Source: Candidatus Methylomirabilia bacterium (GTDB lineage: Bacteria; Methylomirabilota; Methylomirabilia; Rokubacteriales; CSP1-6). From it: a stretch of 60,224 nt of DNA. Positions 12,901 to 28,173 of the stretch are shown here, piece after piece. The position numbers and the translations under genes were made by a program. The number at the start of each line of letters is the position of its first letter. Position 1 is the stretch's first letter. The notes beneath the pieces were generated by a model. That model ran no database searches, was not told the origin of the DNA, and worked only from the letters and a program-made list of their open reading frames with translations. The DNA lies in NCBI GenBank assembly GCA_041493605.1, contig JBGPZD010000002.1, positions 1-60,224 on the forward strand, in the 5' to 3' direction.

Positions 12901-13572
12901 TCAGGGTGCTCCCTCAGGCCCGGCCGCCTTGCCGTCCACGGCCTGGAGCACGGCCGCCAGGAAATCCCGCTCGGGCACCGCGCCCTCGAAGCCGACCTTG
13001 TCGTTGATCACGATCTTCGGCACCGCCATCACCCGGTAGCGCTGGGCCAGCTCGGGGAACTCGGTGGCCTCGATGCACTCCGCCCGCACCCGTGGGGAGG
13101 CGATCGCCATGTGCTGCGCCAGGCGCACGGCCCGGGGGCAATGCGGTCAGGTGGGCGTCGTGAAGACCTTGATGGTGACGTCTTCGGTGAGCCCCTCGAG
13201 CGCGGTCCGCGTCTCGGCGCTCAAGGCGGGCTCGCCCGTCGAAGCGGTGACGATGGAGTCGATCAGGTTGGAGAACTCGTAGCCGGCCGGGACGCCGAGA
13301 AACCGGATGCCGTAGTCGCGCGCGCCCTCGACCACGACGACCGGCGCGGCATCCACGCCATAGGCGGCGGCCTGCTCCTTGTCGATGTGCGGGTTCAGCA
13401 CCGTCACCGAAAGCTTGTCAGACAGCGCCGCGACCTCCCGGATCAACGCCACGGCCTGGGTGTTGTGCTCGCCGCCCAGCTCCGACGCGAAGACCGTGAG
13501 CTTGACGGGCCCGCCCAGCTTTTCGAACTCCTTCTTCACCGCCGTCTCGTCCTGCGCCGTGAGAAATCCCAT
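12901..13572 (-). CDS. Protein disulfide oxidoreductase / glutaredoxin-like two-Trx-fold protein; candidate selenoprotein (Sec at TGA 13147-13149, motif UPHC)
   Basis: ORFs 13147..13815 (from MGFLTAQDE at 13570-13572) and 12901..13128 are in the same frame, separated only by one TGA. Readthrough gives 223 aa colinear with PDO-type proteins. The stop sits at KVFTTPT-[TGA]-PHCPRAVRLA, where the family has TPTCPYCP. The C-terminus EATEFPELAQRYRVMAVPKIVIN is typical. Confidence 0.75.
13106..13131 (-). other. Candidate SECIS-like hairpin downstream of UGA 13147-13149
   Basis: mRNA sense is GCC-GUGC-GC[CUGGC]GC-A-GCAC-AU-GGC: 9 bp in three segments with A and AU bulges. The apical loop contains GG and begins about 24 nt after the UGA. 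Weaker than the 19232-19260 hairpin. Confidence 0.35.
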
Positions 13573-16187: not shown

Positions 16188-17360
16188 TCAGCCTTTGGCC
16201 AGCCGCGCGAGCACCGGGCGCATCCGGTCGAGCGCCTTGCGGATGTTCTCGGCCGAGTTGGCGTAGGAGAGGCGGAGATAGCCCTCCCCGTACTCGCCGA
16301 AGGCCTGCCCGCCGAGCACGGCCACGCCGGCCTCGGTCAGGATGGCCTCGGCCACCTCGGCCGAGGGCCGCTTGAGCGCCTTCACGTTGGGGAAGACGTA
16401 GAAGGCGCCCTTGGGCGAGCGGCAGGAGACGCCGGGCAGCGTGTTCAGCCCGTTCACGATGAGGTCGCGGCGGCGCTTGAACTCGGCGACCATGGCGGCC
16501 ACCGGCGTCTGGTCGCCCTGGAGCGCGGCGATGCCGGCGAGCTGGGTGAACGACGCCGTGCACGAGTTGGAGTTGACCATGAGCCGCGCCACGTGCTCGG
16601 CCAACGGGGCGGGCATGACGCCGTAGCCCAGCCGCCAGCCGGTCATCGCGTAGGCCTTGGAGAAGCCGTCCAGGATGATGACGAGGTCCCGCATCCCCGG
16701 GAAGCGCGTGATCGAGGCGAACTCGCCCTCGTAGAGGAAGGACTTGTAGATCTCGTCGGCCAGCACCGGGATCTGGTACTTCCGGGCAACCTCGGCGATG
16801 CGGCCGAGCTGGTCGGGCTCGAGCACCCCGCCCGTCGGGTTCTGGGGCGAGTTGATGACGATGAGCCGGGTCTTCTTCGAGGCCTTCTTCTCGAGCAGGT
16901 CCAGGTCGAAGCCGAAGCCGCTCTCCTCGCTCAGCGGAATGGGCACGCCGACGCCCCCGACGAAGTTGATCACCGATTCATAGATGGGGAAGCCCGGGTT
17001 CGGGTAGATGACCTCGTCGCCCGGGTTCACCAGCGCCGTGATCACGAAGTACATGATGGGCTTGGCACCCGGCGTGACCACGATTTCCTCGGGGGTCACC
17101 GGGATATTGCGCGTCGCCCCCACGTCCTTGGCGATGGCCTCGCGCAGCTCGGGCAGCCCGGCGGCGGGCCCGTAGTGGGTCGCCCCGGCGTCCAGCGCGC
17201 GCTTGGCGGCGTCCCGGATATGGGCCGGCGTGTCAAAGTCCGGCTCGCCGATCTCGAGGTGGATGATCTCCTTGCCCTGCCGCTCGAGGGCCTTGGCGCG
17301 CGCCAGCACCTCGAACGCCGATTCCGTCCCCAGCCGCGACATGCGCTCGGCGAAATTCAT
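16188..17360 (-). CDS. Class I/II PLP-dependent aminotransferase (aspartate aminotransferase-like)
   Basis: ORF 16188..17510 trimmed to MNFAERMSRLGTESAFEV (ATG 17358-17360). Contains LEIGEPDFDTP, SPQNPTG and SKAYAMTGWRLGY (PLP lysine). Confidence 0.9.
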   Translation of the reverse strand: MNFAERMSRLGTESAFEVLARAKALERQGKEIIHLEIGEPDFDTPAHIRDAAKRALDAGATHYGPAAGLPELREAIAKDVGATRNIPVTPEEIVVTPGAKPIMYFVITALVNPGDEVIYPNPGFPIYESVINFVGGVGVPIPLSEESGFGFDLDLLEKKASKKTRLIVINSPQNPTGGVLEPDQLGRIAEVARKYQIPVLADEIYKSFLYEGEFASITRFPGMRDLVIILDGFSKAYAMTGWRLGYGVMPAPLAEHVARLMVNSNSCTASFTQLAGIAALQGDQTPVAAMVAEFKRRRDLIVNGLNTLPGVSCRSPKGAFYVFPNVKALKRPSAEVAEAILTEAGVAVLGGQAFGEYGEGYLRLSYANSAENIRKALDRMRPVLARLAKG

Positions 17361-17370
17361 GGTGACGACG

Positions 17371-17378
17371 ATTATACT
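17371..17378. promoter_or_regulatory. Palindromic shared -10 region (ATTATACT / AGTATAAT) between divergent genes
   Basis: The intergenic region is only 25 bp. The plus strand has TATACT (17373-17378), 7 nt before ATG 17386. The minus strand has TATAAT (17371-17376), 10 nt before ATG 17360. Confidence 0.4.
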
Positions 17379-17385
17379 CGACGCC

Positions 17386-18051
17386 ATGGACCTGGTGGAG
17401 GTGCCCGCGGGCTGGTTCTGGATGGGATGGGACGGGGGCCATCCGGGTGAGCGGCCGCGGCACCGGGTCTGGCTTGATGCGTTCGCCATCGCCCGCGCGC
17501 CCGTCACCAACCGGCAGTACGCGGCCTTCCTCGAGGCGGCCGGCGCCCCTCCCCCGCCCTGGTGGAGCGACCCGCGCTTCAGCGACCCCGAGCAGCCCGT
17601 GGTCGGCGTGAACTGGTTCGAGGCTGGCGTGTTCTGCGACTGGCTGTCGACCGAGCGGGGTGGGCGCTACCAGCTGCCCACCGAGGCCGAGTGGGAGAAG
17701 GCGGCGCGCGGCGGGCTCGAGGACGCGCGGTATCCCTGGGGCGACGAGCGGCCGGCTGCGGCCGGCTTCGACCAGCCGCCCCGCGTCACGGACACGCCGG
17801 CGAACCCGCTGGGGCTCGTGGCGCTCTCAGGCGTCTGCCACGAGTGGTGCCTCGACTGGGAGGATGAAGGCTACTACGCGACGTCACCCGAGCGGAGTCC
17901 GCGGGGCCCGGCCCACGGCACGCGGCGCGTCTCCCGCGGCGGCGCCTGGCGGCACCAGGACCCGTGGAGCGCCGTAGCCCACCGGTCGTCCCTGCCGCCC
18001 GCCCTGCGCTACTCGGATTACGGCTTCAGGGTGGCGCGGGCGACGAGGTGA
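17386..18051 (+). CDS. Formylglycine-generating-enzyme (SUMF1/EgtB/PvdO) family domain protein
   Basis: Tail of ORF 17203..18051 from MDLVEVPAGWFWMG. Contains PVTNRQYAAFL, LPTEAEWEKAARGG, GVCHEWCLDW, RGGAW and GFRVAR. Confidence 0.85.
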   Translation: MDLVEVPAGWFWMGWDGGHPGERPRHRVWLDAFAIARAPVTNRQYAAFLEAAGAPPPPWWSDPRFSDPEQPVVGVNWFEAGVFCDWLSTERGGRYQLPTEAEWEKAARGGLEDARYPWGDERPAAAGFDQPPRVTDTPANPLGLVALSGVCHEWCLDWEDEGYYATSPERSPRGPAHGTRRVSRGGAWRHQDPWSAVAHRSSLPPALRYSDYGFRVARATR

Positions 18052-18447
18052 CTAGAGGCGGGCGCGCAGTTCGCCGATATCGCGCCGGACTTCGTTGAAC
18101 GCGACGCGGACGACCGCATGGGTGGCGGCGAAACGCTGGTCCATTTCGGAACGGAGGTCGCCACCCAGCCGATCCACACGCTCGGACGTGGCCGCCACGC
18201 CTTCCGCAATGGCACGGATGTCGTGCCGAAGATCCTCGGCGACCACGTCGAAATGGCGCCGGGTCTCGGCGGCGGTGGCGTGGATCTCCTGGCGTAGACC
18301 GCCCACTTCTTGGTGAACGCCGCCCACCTCTTGGCGAAGGCCGCCCACCTCTTGGCGAAGGCCGCCCACCTCCTGGCGGAGGCCCTCCATGTCCTGGCGG
18401 AAGCCGCCTAGGGCACGGTCGAGATATGCGCGGGTTTCGTCGTCCAC
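18052..18447 (-). CDS. Hypothetical coiled-coil protein with tandem heptad (21-nt) repeats
   Basis: 131 aa. The motif RQEVGGL and variants repeat 5-6 times. The stop directly abuts the stop of the convergent FGE gene. Confidence 0.6.
   Translation of the reverse strand: MDDETRAYLDRALGGFRQDMEGLRQEVGGLRQEVGGLRQEVGGVHQEVGGLRQEIHATAAETRRHFDVVAEDLRHDIRAIAEGVAATSERVDRLGGDLRSEMDQRFAATHAVVRVAFNEVRRDIGELRARL
18286..18411 (-). repeat. Six tandem 21-nt (heptad-encoding) repeats inside CDS 18052..18447
   Basis: The plus-strand units are CTCCTGGCGTAGACCGCCCAC, TTCTTGGTGAACGCCGCCCAC, CTCTTGGCGAAGGCCGCCCAC (twice, identical, 18328-18369), CTCCTGGCGGAGGCCCTCCAT and GTCCTGGCGGAAGCCGCCTAG. Confidence 0.85.
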
Positions 18448-18556: not shown

Positions 18557-19312
18557 CTACCAGAGGCTCGCCGGCAGCGGCAGGCCCTCGAAGTCGGCGG
18601 TGGGCAAGGGCTCCCGCGGCGGGATGCCGAGGCCCTCGAGCAGGGCGTAGAGCTGGCGCAGGTGCTGGGCGGCGTGCCAGGTGGTGCGCTCGAGGAGCTC
18701 GTGGCCCGACTGGGGGCCGTAGTAGACGGCGATCGTCCGCGCGAACTCTGTCGGGGAGGCTCCCTCGAACCAGCCGCCGATCCGGCCGCGCACCAGGGCG
18801 CCGTATCGGGCGATGGCCGCGCCGTCGCGGAGATCCTTCGGCGCCGTCTCCTGGAGCCACGTCCCGGGCAGCGTCCCCATGTCCATACCGTCCACGAAAG
18901 CCAGGCTCAACCGGAAGAGATGATAGGTCAGGTCGCGGATGCTCCGGTCGCGCTGGGGCGGCTTGTGCTCGAGATGCGCCTCGGGCACCGCGGCAATCGC
19001 GCGCTCGGCCGAAGCCAGGACGCGGTCGAGCCGCGCCGCGAGCTCGGCGGGCGGCAGCTTGGCCGCGGGAGTGAAATCGACCCCGAGCAGCTCGGCGTAG
19101 GCCGGCGGGTTCCACCCGTGCACCGCGCGGGCGCCGACCGCAACGGCCGGCACCACTGCGACCCCCAGCCGTTTCAGCTCCTCGAGCGCGGCGGCGCTGC
19201 CCTCGACGTTCACGGGATCGAACTCGATCCCCCAAGACGACAAGAGCTCCTTCGTCTTGGCGCAAGAGGATCAGCCGGGCCGGTAGAAGAGGCGCGGGCG
19301 CGGCGCGGTCAT
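18557..19312 (-). CDS. Glutaredoxin-like domain fused to DinB-like domain; candidate selenoprotein (Sec at TGA 19271-19273, motif USSC)
   Basis: ORF 18557..19243 (TTG start in the track) extends in frame through a single TGA to ATG 19310-19312: MTAPRPRLFYRPG-[TGA]-SSCAKTKELLSSWGIEFDPVNV. This is a Grx beta1/CxxC/helix pattern with TGA at the first Cys. The ATG lies 1 nt after the upstream gene stop. The C-terminal part (DLTYHLFRL..TTWHAAQHLRQL) is DinB-like. Confidence 0.75.
19232..19260 (-). other. Candidate bacterial SECIS hairpin downstream of UGA 19271-19273
   Basis: mRNA sense is UGA-N10-CCAAGACGA AGG[AGCU]CUU(G) UCGUCUUGG. A perfect 9-bp lower stem starts 11 nt after the UGA. It is followed by a 3-bp upper stem with a bulged G and an AGCU tetraloop. 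It lies entirely inside coding sequence (AKTKELLSSWG). Confidence 0.6.
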
Positions 19313-19313
19313 T

Positions 19314-20660
19314 TCAACGGACGCTCAGGAACACGTTGAGGGCGCGGCGATCGGCGACGGCGAAGTCGAGCAGCCCGTCGCCGTCCAGATCGGTCACCAC
19401 GAAGTTCGACTGCACGGGGCTCTTGAGCTCGATCACCCATCGCTCGGCCCAGTGGTCGCCCTGGAGCTCGAGGCCGGCCACGGCGTCGCGGCTTTCGCGC
19501 GGCACGACCACCTCCGGCGCGCCGTTGCCGTCGAGATCGGCGATGAGCGCCTGCTCGAGGTTGCGCGAGCCGATGGCGTGGGAGGAATAGCCCGGCGCCC
19601 GCGCGACGCGGACGAGCGAGCCGCCGGCCCGGCGATAGGCCGTGAGCGCGCCGCCGATATGGGGAGTGGCCACGGCCACGATCTCGGGCTGGCCGCCGCC
19701 GGACAGATCCGCCGCGCCGATCACATGGCTCCAGCGATGGCTGTGACCCGAGCTGGGGCCCTCGGCGAGCAGGACCAGGCCCCCGTCGCGCCAGCCGAGA
19801 GCCACGGTGGACGTCCCCTGACCGTTGCCGCTCCGGGTGAGAATCACCGACGGCCGCGGGGTCCCTCCGATGAAAGCAAGGACCGGAACCAGGTCCTCGA
19901 AGACCGCGGGAGCGGGCAGCGCGTAACGGCCCTTCAGCTCCAGGCTGTGGCTGCCGACACCGATGACGCTGACGCTGCCCGCCTCCAGGCGGTCACCGAG
20001 TATGCCGTGGGCGTAGCGATCGGTCGGTCCGGTCAGCACCACGGCCTCGGGCACGCCGTCGCCGTCGAGATCGGCCAGCGTGATCCGCGCATCGGGCAGC
20101 GCCCGGATGTCGAGGCGCGAGATCACGCGGGGGCTGCCGGCCGACAGGCCGCCGATGAGCACCACCGCGCCGTCCTGGGCCACGGCGAGGAGATCGTGGG
20201 ACGCCTTGCCGACCTGGATCACCGGAATCGGAAACGTCAGGGGCGAGAGCGGGGCGCCCACGTCATAGCCGCGCAGGACGAGATCGTCCCAGACCAGCAG
20301 CCGGCCGTCGGGTGCCACCAGCGCCAGGCCCAGCCGCTCCGCGTCCAAGCGCACGACGACGGGCGGCCCGTCCGGGCTCCCGCTCTCGCCGTAGCGCGCG
20401 CCCACGCGAAGGCCCGACGGCGTCACGTCGAACAGCCAGAGCGTGCCGTCCCGATCGATCGCCGCGAGCCGCCGCGGGCCGAAGGCCACGACCCACTTGA
20501 GCGGCGCGTCCGTCACGAGGGACAGCGCTTGCCAGCGCGGGAAACTCCCCTTGCCCGCGGCCACGCGGTTGCCCGACGACTCGCCGAAGGGCAGCCCCCA
20601 GCCGAGCGCCTCGACGGCGGCGGCCAAGAGAAGCGTCGCGACGATGAAGGCCCGGATCAT
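19314..20660 (-). CDS. Secreted FG-GAP/VCBS repeat (beta-propeller) protein
   Basis: 448 aa. Signal peptide MIRAFIVATLLLAAAVEA. Repeated ADLDGDGVPEAVV / ADLDGNGAPEVVV / TDLDGDGLLDFAV Ca-binding FG-GAP motifs. Confidence 0.8.
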   Translation of the reverse strand: MIRAFIVATLLLAAAVEALGWGLPFGESSGNRVAAGKGSFPRWQALSLVTDAPLKWVVAFGPRRLAAIDRDGTLWLFDVTPSGLRVGARYGESGSPDGPPVVVRLDAERLGLALVAPDGRLLVWDDLVLRGYDVGAPLSPLTFPIPVIQVGKASHDLLAVAQDGAVVLIGGLSAGSPRVISRLDIRALPDARITLADLDGDGVPEAVVLTGPTDRYAHGILGDRLEAGSVSVIGVGSHSLELKGRYALPAPAVFEDLVPVLAFIGGTPRPSVILTRSGNGQGTSTVALGWRDGGLVLLAEGPSSGHSHRWSHVIGAADLSGGGQPEIVAVATPHIGGALTAYRRAGGSLVRVARAPGYSSHAIGSRNLEQALIADLDGNGAPEVVVPRESRDAVAGLELQGDHWAERWVIELKSPVQSNFVVTDLDGDGLLDFAVADRRALNVFLSVR

Positions 20661-27186: not shown

Positions 27187-27401
27187 TGCCTTCCCGGCCC
27201 CGATCCCGGGCCCGGGACCCAGATCACCGCCGTGAGCCAGGCCGCCACCGGGGCCGCCACACCGCCGTACCACCAGAGCAGCGAGAGCCCCGCAACCCGC
27301 ACGGCGGCCAGCTGATTGGGAAGAGCGCTGAGAAGGGGGAAGCCGGCGAGCAACAGGAGCAGCACGAGGACGCCCTTGGAGCGGTTCGTCACCATCTGCA
27401 T
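27183..27401 (-). CDS. Hypothetical small membrane protein (72 aa)
   Basis: MQMVTNRSKGVLVLLLLLAGFPLL.. has two hydrophobic helices. Its stop overlaps the start of 25684..27186. Confidence 0.5.
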   Translation of the reverse strand: MQMVTNRSKGVLVLLLLLAGFPLLSALPNQLAAVRVAGLSLLWWYGGVAAPVAAWLTAVIWVPGPGSGPGRQ

Positions 27402-27439
27402 TATAGCGAAACCGCGCGGGCACCTGCCGCGTCTTAAGG

Positions 27440-27445
27440 TAGAAT
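27440..27445 (+). promoter_or_regulatory. -10-like TAGAAT upstream of the PIG-L deacetylase gene (leadered; SD AAAGGAG at 27456-27462)
   Basis: Read directly from the sequence. Confidence 0.3.
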
Positions 27446-27471
27446 CTCAGAACCGAAAGGAGCACGCTGAC

Positions 27472-28173
27472 ATGGCCCAGAGGATCCAGCGCGTGACGGT
27501 CATCACCGCCCACCCCGACGACTCCGAGTTCGGCGCCGGCGGGACCGTCGCCAAGCTGGCGCGGGAAGGCATGACAGTCACCTACTGCATCGTGACCAGC
27601 GGCAACAAGGGCTCGGGCGACCGGACCATGACGCCCGAGCGCCTCGCGACGATCCGGCAGGAAGAGCAGCGCGCGGCCGCCCGCGTCCTCGGCGTCGAGA
27701 CCGTGGACTTCCTCGGTTTCCCTGACGGCGAGCTCGAGGACACGCGCGAGTCGCGCATGGCGGTGGCGGGAGCCATCCGGCGGCACAAGCCCGATCTCGT
27801 CATCTGCCAGAACCCCCAGCGCACGCGGAACCTCTTCGCCTCGCACCGCGACCACCGGGTGGCGGGCGGCATCACCCTCGACTGCGTCTATCCCCTGGCG
27901 CGCGACCACATGGCCTTCCCCGAACTGATCGCGCAGGGGCTCGAGCCGCACAAGGTCAAGGAGGTGCACATCATGGCCTGGGACAGCCCCGAGCTCGTGG
28001 TGGACATCTCCGCCACCATGGATCTCAAGCTCAAGGCGCTTGCCTGCCACGCGAGCCAGATCCAGGACATGGCCGCCGTGGAGGCGCGCGTGCGCGACCG
28101 CGCCGCCCAGTTCGGCAAGGCCAAGGGCTACGCGTACGCGGAAACCTTCGACCGCATCGTCATCGAGCGGTAG
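27472..28173 (+). CDS. PIG-L/LmbE family deacetylase
   Basis: Tail of ORF 27316..28173 from MAQRIQRVTVITAHPDDSEFGAGG (AHPDDxE motif). HRDH follows later. AAAGGAG lies 9 nt upstream. Confidence 0.9.
   Translation: MAQRIQRVTVITAHPDDSEFGAGGTVAKLAREGMTVTYCIVTSGNKGSGDRTMTPERLATIRQEEQRAAARVLGVETVDFLGFPDGELEDTRESRMAVAGAIRRHKPDLVICQNPQRTRNLFASHRDHRVAGGITLDCVYPLARDHMAFPELIAQGLEPHKVKEVHIMAWDSPELVVDISATMDLKLKALACHASQIQDMAAVEARVRDRAAQFGKAKGYAYAETFDRIVIER

Follow-up and report, generated by a model that had tools for sequence, protein, structure and literature searches.

We report here a gene in a 60,224-nt stretch of DNA from Candidatus Methylomirabilia bacterium (assembly GCA_041493605.1, contig JBGPZD010000002.1; below, the window) that most probably encodes a selenoprotein, a fusion of a glutaredoxin (Grx) domain with a DinB_2 domain. 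The gene lies on the minus strand at 18557-19312 and contains a single in-frame TGA codon (19271-19273), which stands at the first position of the redox motif of the Grx domain. We put the probability that this is a genuine bacterial gene encoding selenocysteine (Sec) at about 0.9, judging from sequence comparison: the in-frame TGA is conserved among relatives, other relatives have a cysteine in its place, and the RNA that follows it carries a structure that has been under selection.

The gene caller reports an open reading frame (ORF) of 228 amino acids (aa) on the minus strand, from TTG 19243 to the TAG stop at 18557-18559. If one reads upstream from this TTG in the same frame, one crosses only one stop, the TGA at 19271-19273, and then reaches, 13 codons ahead of it, an ATG at 19310-19312; the frame is closed 17 codons ahead of this TGA. 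The read-through coding sequence, as seen in translation, Pfam and tblastn, specifies 251 aa followed by the TAG stop. Its restored N-terminus is MTAPRPRLFYRPG-U-SSC-AKTKELLSSWGIEFDPVNVEG, in which the TGA would specify Sec as residue 14, the first position of a U-S-S-C redox motif, and Cys17 (TGC, 19262-19264) would be the resolving cysteine of this UxxC; the codon of the latter is TGC or TGT in 75 of 75 Sec-form sequences. Since the Pfam Glutaredoxin domain spans aa 8-62 of the read-through protein (19127-19291, minus strand; PF00462, E = 4.3e-10, 40.1 bits with a cutoff of 22.9, with U written as C for the scan), the called start falls inside the Grx domain. We were not able to find a clear Shine-Dalgarno sequence ahead of the ATG. 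The TGA stop of the upstream FG-GAP gene (19314-19316) ends 1 nt before this ATG, so that translational coupling is likely. A first-pass annotation of the window had already pointed out the TTG start of the caller, the single TGA and the upstream ATG, and had taken the restored N-terminus for a Grx with TGA at the first redox position; all of its coordinates could be reproduced, and the Pfam match agrees with its view of the fold.

The codon or residue that relatives have at the position of the TGA was analysed both in proteins and in DNA. A search for protein homologues among 5.8 billion proteins gave 1322 matches. The close homologues are nearly all called at 216-229 aa, with differing and arbitrary starts, and are named "DinB family protein" or "hypothetical protein"; the named sources are Rokubacteria, Methylomirabilota and NC10. 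A few homologues are full-length (248-258 aa), and these have YRPG-C-SSC where the window has YRPG-TGA-SSC (P0009, P0018, P0027). In DNA, we scanned one genome per GTDB species and obtained 80 loci with tblastn alignments that cross the TGA (query residues 1-251 or 5-251), and 77 of them are complete at the TGA column. The codon in this column is TGA in 76 of the 77 complete loci and TGC in one (L042). The proteins from the related loci are 53-84% identical to the window protein, and most of the loci belong to Rokubacteria/Methylomirabilota, a few others being labelled Binatia, Acidobacteria, Terriglobia, SAR324 or Thermodesulfobacteriota. Among the complete loci, a [FY]-[YH]-R-P-G motif and the beta1 strand before the TGA are conserved, and an in-frame start is found 8-21 codons upstream of the TGA (mostly 10-13 codons) in 77 of 77; in many loci a stop closes the frame just ahead of this start. 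The first-pass annotation had proposed to look for Cys or TGA in this column, and both are there. Among the findings that it had named as speaking against Sec are a start of all homologues downstream of the motif and a TGA that is a sequencing artefact. The conserved residues and the start codons ahead of the TGA are at odds with the former, and the recurrence of the same TGA in 76 independent assemblies excludes the latter.

To this we can add an exhaustive profile search of 1.84 billion cluster representatives, which gave 919 relatives. Among the best 150 of the 919 representatives there are 35 full-length Cys forms, with the motif PG-C-[ST]-S-C. A further 58 are called without their N-terminus but have a complete DinB end, and count as candidate Sec forms; the remainder are fragments or could not be classified. 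Furthermore, the Sec column of the window protein aligns with the Sec of a reference Sec-Grx from the deep-Sep supplement (33% identity, E = 4e-11). Since full-length Cys forms and TGA forms meet in one and the same column, which is the classical signature of a Sec/Cys pair, the window gene falls into a broad Grx-DinB family, on a branch that uses Sec where the other members have Cys.

A few individual sequences of this family deserve a separate mention. The close full-length homologue P0022 (251 aa, ENA metagenome) reads YRPG-S-SS-S in place of U/C-SS-C, and at one further position it has Ser for the Cys of its Cys-form relatives. The sequence could be that of a natural, redox-dead variant, or it could be an artefact. 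In P0246 (721 aa), a Cys-form Grx-DinB module forms the C-terminus (residues ~493-715) after an N-terminal region of ~480 residues. Three contigs of the Rokubacteria or Binatia type (L020, L029, L065) are filed under Candidatus Nitrosocosmicus (an archaeon), Verrucomicrobiia and Enterobacteriaceae. The gene order of Rokubacteria is shared by L020 and L029, and these implausible labels are probably binning errors in the source metagenome-assembled genomes (MAGs).

The RNA that follows the TGA can form two consecutive hairpins. Helix 1 (19232-19260, minus strand), a candidate Sec insertion sequence (SECIS), is a stem-loop of 12 pairs: a perfect 9-bp stem (CCAAGACGA/UCGUCUUGG) begins exactly 10 nt past the UGA and is followed by a bulged G and 3 more pairs. 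The loop at its top, AGCU (19245-19248), lies at a distance of 22 nt from the UGA. The minimum free energy (MFE) of the hairpin is -17.1 kcal/mol. Stem position and length, bulge, loop and spacing are all as given by the first-pass annotation. Helix 2, which is absent from that annotation, lies directly 3' of helix 1 (19214-19231, minus strand); it is a 7-bp hairpin (GGGAUCG-AGUU-CGAUCCC) that covers the codons of G-I-E-F-D-P.

We aligned 65 distinct 63-nt segments beginning at the TGA and counted both helices in register. Paired cells make up 86.5% of the cells of the two helices, a share that falls to 39-53% once the 3' partners are shifted by 1-3 columns. In 47 cells both sides of a pair have changed, compared with 19.1 ± 3.0 in column shuffles, none of which (0 of 500) reaches 47. 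For example, the pair 22-34 of helix 1 is A-U in 47 sequences and C-G in 9. Here, a change from Lys-AAG to Arg-CGR is accompanied in 9 of 9 cases by a change of the partner from Ser-UCG to Ala-GCG; where Arg is encoded by AGR, the partner Ser-UCG is mostly retained (coupling of columns 22 and 34, Fisher p = 1e-7). Likewise, 18 sequences have A-U and 17 have G-C at the pair 23-33. In the loop of helix 1, A26 never varies, and at least 90% of the sequences have G27. In helix 2, five of the seven pairs have changes on both sides. In its columns 46 and 57, Val GUC goes with Asp GAC in 34 sequences and Ile AUC with the rare Asp codon GAU in 11, and A-C mismatches do not occur (Fisher p = 4e-9), the site in the Asp codon being a synonymous third position.

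The choice of synonymous codons points in the same direction. Thr20 is encoded by ACG in 75 of 75 cases within the hairpins (background in the same genes 50%), Ser25 by TCG in 56 of 56 (background 40%) and Ala18 by GCC in 62 of 64 (background 44%), and the rare TCT is used for Ser26 in 58% (background 4%). The relative codon entropy is 0.37 within the hairpins and 0.60 elsewhere (Mann-Whitney p = 0.003).

As a further comparison, we used the four constraints published for bacterial SECIS (bSECIS) elements (PMC13188914, Fig. 2), which cover a loop of 3-9 nt that has a G within its first two positions, an upper stem of 4-16 bp, a distance of 16-37 nt between UGA and loop and an MFE of at most -7.5 kcal/mol. 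Out of 61 distinct Sec-form sequences, 58 fall within all four, and the spacing is 22 nt in 47; the hairpin of the window, with its AGCU loop, 12 pairs, 22 nt and -17.1 kcal/mol, lies within the model as well. The mean folding energy of the Sec-form hairpins is -17.3 kcal/mol, and four closely related Cys forms have values from -9 to -20 kcal/mol. The view of the first-pass annotation that the hairpin has the geometry of a bacterial SECIS thus stands, and the covariation and the freezing of synonymous sites add to it. Rfam gave no SECIS match, either at its gathering thresholds over the whole window or in a permissive scan limited to 19150-19330.

Helix 2 occurs in the Rokubacteria lineage, whereas the distant members of the family (L052-L080) do not keep it. 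Its absence from the most distant of them suggests a lineage-specific accessory, which in Rokubacteria probably contributes to the recoding signal.

A gene of this kind requires a genome that decodes Sec. A scan of the window for TGA codons with a coding-type G+C content of third codon positions on both sides gave exactly one further case. This second TGA-interrupted gene (12901-13572, minus strand; ATG 13572, TGA 13147-13149, stop 12901) codes for a protein disulfide oxidoreductase of 223 aa with the motif FTTPT-U-PHC-P. On the model TIGR02187.2, PDO_seleno_TRX, the product of read-through reaches 256 bits (cutoff 185), and the match, at residues 7-211, spans the TGA. TIGR02187 PDO_seleno_TRX is listed as a UxxC selenoprotein family (PMC9312934, PMC13188914). 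We were not able to see a clear canonical bSECIS downstream of this second TGA by single-sequence folding. Still, since a member of a selenoprotein family lies in the same window, the source genome very probably decodes Sec, as far as the sequence can tell. TGA is also the ordinary stop of many Pfam-verified genes in the window, so the codon has not been reassigned genome-wide. The phylum itself fits: Methylomirabilota has been reported as rich in selenoproteins (PMC13188914, PMC13582414), including a MAG with 63 predicted selenoprotein genes (PMC13188914) and group 4 hydrogenases of the Sec type (PMC13582414).

Several results weigh against the reading of the gene as a selenoprotein gene or against our view of its function. 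We found no tRNA-Sec, selA, selB or selD in the 60-kb window or in the related loci that were fetched: ARAGORN reports no tRNA in the window and a single tRNA-Arg in 53 related loci, and SelA, SelB and SelD are absent from a Pfam survey of 30 window ORFs. The hairpin of the window is not exceptional by its stability. The first-pass annotation had considered a perfect 9-bp stem unlikely to be accidental, and this could not be upheld: at 69% G+C, 12 of 200 dinucleotide shuffles fold as well as helix 1 (z = -1.6), and for the 71-nt context of the hairpin z is -0.64. Since the hairpin alone is statistically unremarkable in such a G+C-rich sequence, the case rests on the comparative evidence, where the covariation statistics were computed without phylogenetic correction. 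Moreover, four Cys-form relatives retain 9-11 of the 12 pairs of helix 1. The pairing potential may therefore come in part from the conserved peptide or from recent ancestry, and the contrast between Sec and Cys forms is not decisive. The loop is A-G-C-U in most Rokubacteria, which is not the commonest G-[G/U] pattern. As to function, there is no conserved Cys in the DinB half, no neighbouring gene is conserved across phyla in the loci compared, and it is from the architecture alone that a substrate and a cooperation of the two domains are suggested.

We considered three other explanations of the TGA. If the gene callers are right, both here and in the public databases, where most of the entries are 216-229-aa "DinB family" or hypothetical proteins, the TGA is a true stop. 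The gene would then start at TTG 19243 or later and encode a DinB protein with a truncated, non-redox remnant of a Grx; the 13 codons before the TGA would be a leader peptide or non-coding, and the hairpin would serve mRNA stability or translational coupling. However, such a start lies inside the Grx fold, so that beta1 and the active site would have been lost while the remaining fold stays conserved, and the called starts differ among the homologues (aa 24, 25, 35 and others). In addition, the ~13 codons before the TGA are conserved as protein across phyla, in frame with the downstream gene, and the Cys-form homologues run continuously through the position of the TGA. We find a true stop hardly credible for these reasons. 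The TGA could also have arisen through an error of sequencing or assembly, or through a recent mutation that has made a pseudogene of the gene in the source genome, and one window by itself is no proof to the contrary. Yet 76 genomes, assembled independently in many studies and from many habitats, have the same TGA, and the frame is otherwise intact, which leaves a negligible chance for this explanation.

The third explanation concerns the amino acid that is inserted. The conserved TGA, the SECIS-like hairpin and the Cys homologues are equally compatible with a SECIS-dependent insertion of Cys. In this case the UGA would be recoded to Cys or another standard amino acid, be it by a SelB-dependent tRNA of the selC*/tRNA-ReC type or by near-cognate read-through, and the product would be an ordinary CxxC enzyme; UGA-decoding Cys tRNAs are mentioned for some Sec-encoding bacteria (PMC13582414). 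However, the column aligns with the Sec of a known Sec-Grx, and the window contains a member of a curated selenoprotein family. It is also general knowledge that a UGA with a bSECIS normally specifies Sec. Furthermore, a costly recoding signal has been kept in 76 lineages though one change from TGA to TGC suffices to dispense with it, as in L042, and this argues that the inserted residue differs functionally from Cys. A standard amino acid at this position is thus, in our opinion, highly unlikely, and we continue with Sec.

The read-through protein consists of two domains. The first is the Grx-fold domain, which is NrdH/YruB-like and has a cis-Pro loop (V-P55-A) and a G-W-N-P motif. The second is a DinB_2 four-helix-bundle domain at aa 95-221 (18650-19030, minus strand; PF12867, 31.4 bits with a cutoff of 24.8). 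In a sequence search of the PDB, the best match was cGrx1 of C. oremlandii (7c10/7c12, E = 1.2e-7). We built an AlphaFold2 model on P0009, a natural Cys form that is 70% identical to the window protein, using an alignment of 44 sequences (pLDDT 89.2, pTM 0.83). The N-terminal domain of the model has the order beta1-alpha1-beta2-alpha2-beta3-beta4-alpha3, with the CxxC where alpha1 begins; a linker connects it to a four-helix bundle, which has its helices at 95-114, 132-152, 171-191 and 210-234 (P0009 numbering). When compared with the PDB by Foldseek, the N-terminal domain matches cGrx1 (7c10), BC3987 (3zit) and NrdH (1h75). The bundle matches, with a probability of 1.00, YfiT (1rxq), DR0053 (6iz2), YjoA (3dka), 2p1a, 3gor, 2f22, the mycothiol-dependent maleylpyruvate isomerase MDMPI (2nsf) and a mycothiol S-transferase (8f5v).

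The residues that are invariant in our alignments (A1, A3) are cis-Pro55, the NrdH-like G66-W67-x-P69, His131, His204, Glu208 and His213-x3-His217. His131 (codon 18920-18922, minus strand) belongs to the DinB_2 domain, and the pair His213 and His217 (18674-18676 and 18662-18664, minus strand) lies on the last helix of the bundle; in the model of P0009 all three are placed on bundle helices. From what is known of the DinB/YfiT family, His131, His213 and His217 presumably form a metal-binding triad.

The sequences and the model show the conserved in-frame TGA, the Sec/Cys pair, the selected RNA structure and the two folds; as to selenium insertion, metal binding, substrate and reductant, they suggest the following mechanism. 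The UGA at 19271-19273 would be decoded as Sec, with helix 1, inside the coding sequence and with its loop A-G-Y-U 22 nt from the UGA, recruiting SelB with Sec-tRNA(Sec) to the ribosome; the lineage-specific helix 2 would probably assist the recoding. The product would be a cytoplasmic two-domain enzyme of 251 aa, whose N-terminal Grx domain has its redox centre, Sec14-Ser-Ser-Cys17, at the start of alpha1, and whose C-terminal DinB/YfiT-type bundle retains the set of invariant histidines. The selenolate of Sec14 could attack a disulfide, a mixed disulfide or an electrophile at the DinB site, which may hold a metal or a low-molecular-weight thiol. This would yield a selenenylsulfide between Sec14 and Cys17, to be reduced again by thioredoxin reductase or by a low-molecular-weight thiol. 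Our best guess for the physiological role is a Sec-dependent enzyme of thiol/disulfide exchange or thiol transfer that uses the DinB metal site. A bolder version, which we regard as unlikely, is that the Sec-Grx delivers its selenolate directly into the metal site of the DinB His triad, and that both hairpins form a bipartite SECIS, unlike the single-hairpin model. If this were true, the protein would represent a new type of seleno-metalloenzyme within the DinB/YfiT superfamily, for example a selenium-assisted thiol/electrophile transferase or a reductase specific to soil Rokubacteria.

How does the protein compare with known systems? Grx (PF00462, UxxC) counts among the selenoprotein families with experimental verification; according to PMC9312934 and PMC13188914, which both list the work of Kim et al. 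2011, the verified member is Grx1 of Clostridium sp. OhILAs / C. oremlandii. The window protein shares with this family the fold, the Sec as first residue of a UxxC at the N-terminus of alpha1, and the SECIS inside the coding sequence just past the UGA. On the other hand, the known members have a single domain, a length of ~80-120 aa and a UPWC or UPYC motif (the reference members in the deep-Sep supplement have 81 and 122 aa), whereas the window protein has 251 aa, a USSC motif and a C-terminal DinB_2 domain. It also differs in being NrdH/YruB-like (G-W-N-P) rather than having the classical glutathione-binding motifs, and in its range, which comprises Rokubacteria and other soil and groundwater lineages.

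In a similar manner, the second domain resembles the DinB/YfiT-like metal-dependent thiol S-transferases (B. subtilis YfiT/BstA 1rxq, M. tuberculosis mycothiol S-transferase 8f5v, mycothiol-dependent maleylpyruvate isomerase 2nsf) in its four-helix bundle (target TM-score 0.66-0.83). Its invariant His on the first helix and HxxxH on the last may correspond to the metal ligands of YfiT. However, the identity is only 14-20%, and the solved relatives have neither a fused redoxin domain nor a selenocysteine. The PDO_seleno_TRX family, homologous to the N-terminal domain of AhpF and with a member in the same window, is likewise a thioredoxin-fold UxxC selenoprotein family, but it has two thioredoxin-like halves, U-PHC and no DinB domain, and the Grx-DinB protein fails its model.

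Fusions of comparable design exist outside the selenoproteins. In the hybrid Prx5-Grx of Haemophilus influenzae (1nm3), to which there is a weak Foldseek match, a Grx fold is joined to a catalytic partner domain, and by analogy such a fusion suggests an intramolecular transfer of electrons or thiols. Glutathione S-transferases are alike in architecture only (a thioredoxin-like and a helical domain), and their Foldseek matches are weak, with a root-mean-square deviation of 11-16 Å. In both cases we are dealing with an analogy and not with homology of the whole protein; in Grx-DinB the partner is DinB and the redox residue is Sec. Finally, we tried and rejected the NCBIfam families of the Uxx-star/HUGP-GUXX-star type, for which the protein scores 27.4 (NF041212, cutoff 66), 22.1 (NF045501, cutoff 325), 21.2 (NF047338, cutoff 97) and 16.1 (NF041211, cutoff 100). 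In these families the Sec is located three residues from the C-terminus, whereas here it is residue 14 of 251.

Recoding of UGA with an in-frame bSECIS and UxxC chemistry on a thioredoxin fold are textbook matter; what differs is the architecture and the lineage. The first-pass annotation knew of no described family that fuses a Sec-Grx to a DinB-like domain, and this can be maintained in part. It is consistent with the literature and the NCBIfam models that were searched: no model of NCBIfam release 20 matches the Grx-DinB protein above its cutoff (the best two, TIGR02196 and TIGR02194, stay below theirs), a full-text search for "selenoprotein" together with "DinB" gave incidental papers only, and "DinB" is absent from the text of the selenoprotein reviews of 2022 and 2026, from the deep-Sep paper (text and some supplements) and from the main text of BSepDB. 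On the other hand, the fusion in its Cys form is a large sequenced family, which JGI names "glutaredoxin/DinB". Potentially, members are already listed under "Glutaredoxin" in Haft & Tolstoy 2025, in the BSepDB supplements or in Deng et al. 2026.

Grx-DinB is very probably a solid and widespread selenoprotein family with a well-supported two-helix recoding signal, and it is mis-annotated: hundreds of its entries are N-truncated, without the active site, and carry the names "DinB family" or "hypothetical". Once the TGA is read as Sec, the annotation can be put right for a gene that nearly all Rokubacteria, an abundant phylum of soils, possess, and the Grx-DinB_2 architecture joins the bacterial selenoproteome. 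As far as the literature searched shows, it would be the first selenoprotein tied to the DinB/YfiT thiol-transferase superfamily, and it offers a testable redox partner for the poorly understood DinB enzymes of uncultured soil bacteria. In addition, the covariation data set, with 65 distinct sequences and two helices, is useful for refining models of bacterial SECIS elements.

Within Rokubacteria, the order of the genes around Grx-DinB is conserved: ECH, (FG-GAP), Grx-DinB, an FGE-sulfatase gene on the opposite strand, and an aminotransferase gene. In the window, the Grx-DinB gene is followed by the FGE-sulfatase-domain gene (17203-18051, plus strand), which is convergent with it, and by the aminotransferase gene (16188-17510, minus strand); both follow it throughout Rokubacteria, with variable insertions in between. 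Outside Rokubacteria, the neighbours of Grx-DinB are unrelated genes. Since no neighbour is conserved across phyla, the gene context gives no functional clue. We also considered whether the DinB_2 and FGE-sulfatase genes could be a split pair of the EgtB/OvoA type and rejected this: the FGE-sulfatase gene is on the opposite strand at a distance of 0.7-3.4 kb with variable insertions, and it is not adjacent in Binatia, Acidobacteria, SAR324 and other loci.

A gene for a PIG-L family deacetylase is found at 27316-28173 (plus strand), ~8 kb from the Grx-DinB gene. By motif, LmbE/PIG-L-like ORFs are also seen ~1.4-1.5 kb upstream of Grx-DinB in two loci of the Acidobacteria type, L070 (813-1586) and L073 (672-1445), with a putative glycosyltransferase ORF in between. 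We take the PIG-L family to include the mycothiol and bacillithiol deacetylases MshB and BshB. These neighbours may hint at the low-molecular-weight thiol that is used; the family is a broad one.

Just downstream of the Grx-DinB gene there is a further ORF (18052-18447, minus strand); of the loci compared, the two closest were the only ones with a homologue. Its product of 131 aa contains five tandem heptads, (E/Q)EVGGLR, and a match to a sigma-70-like promoter is seen at 18483-18454.

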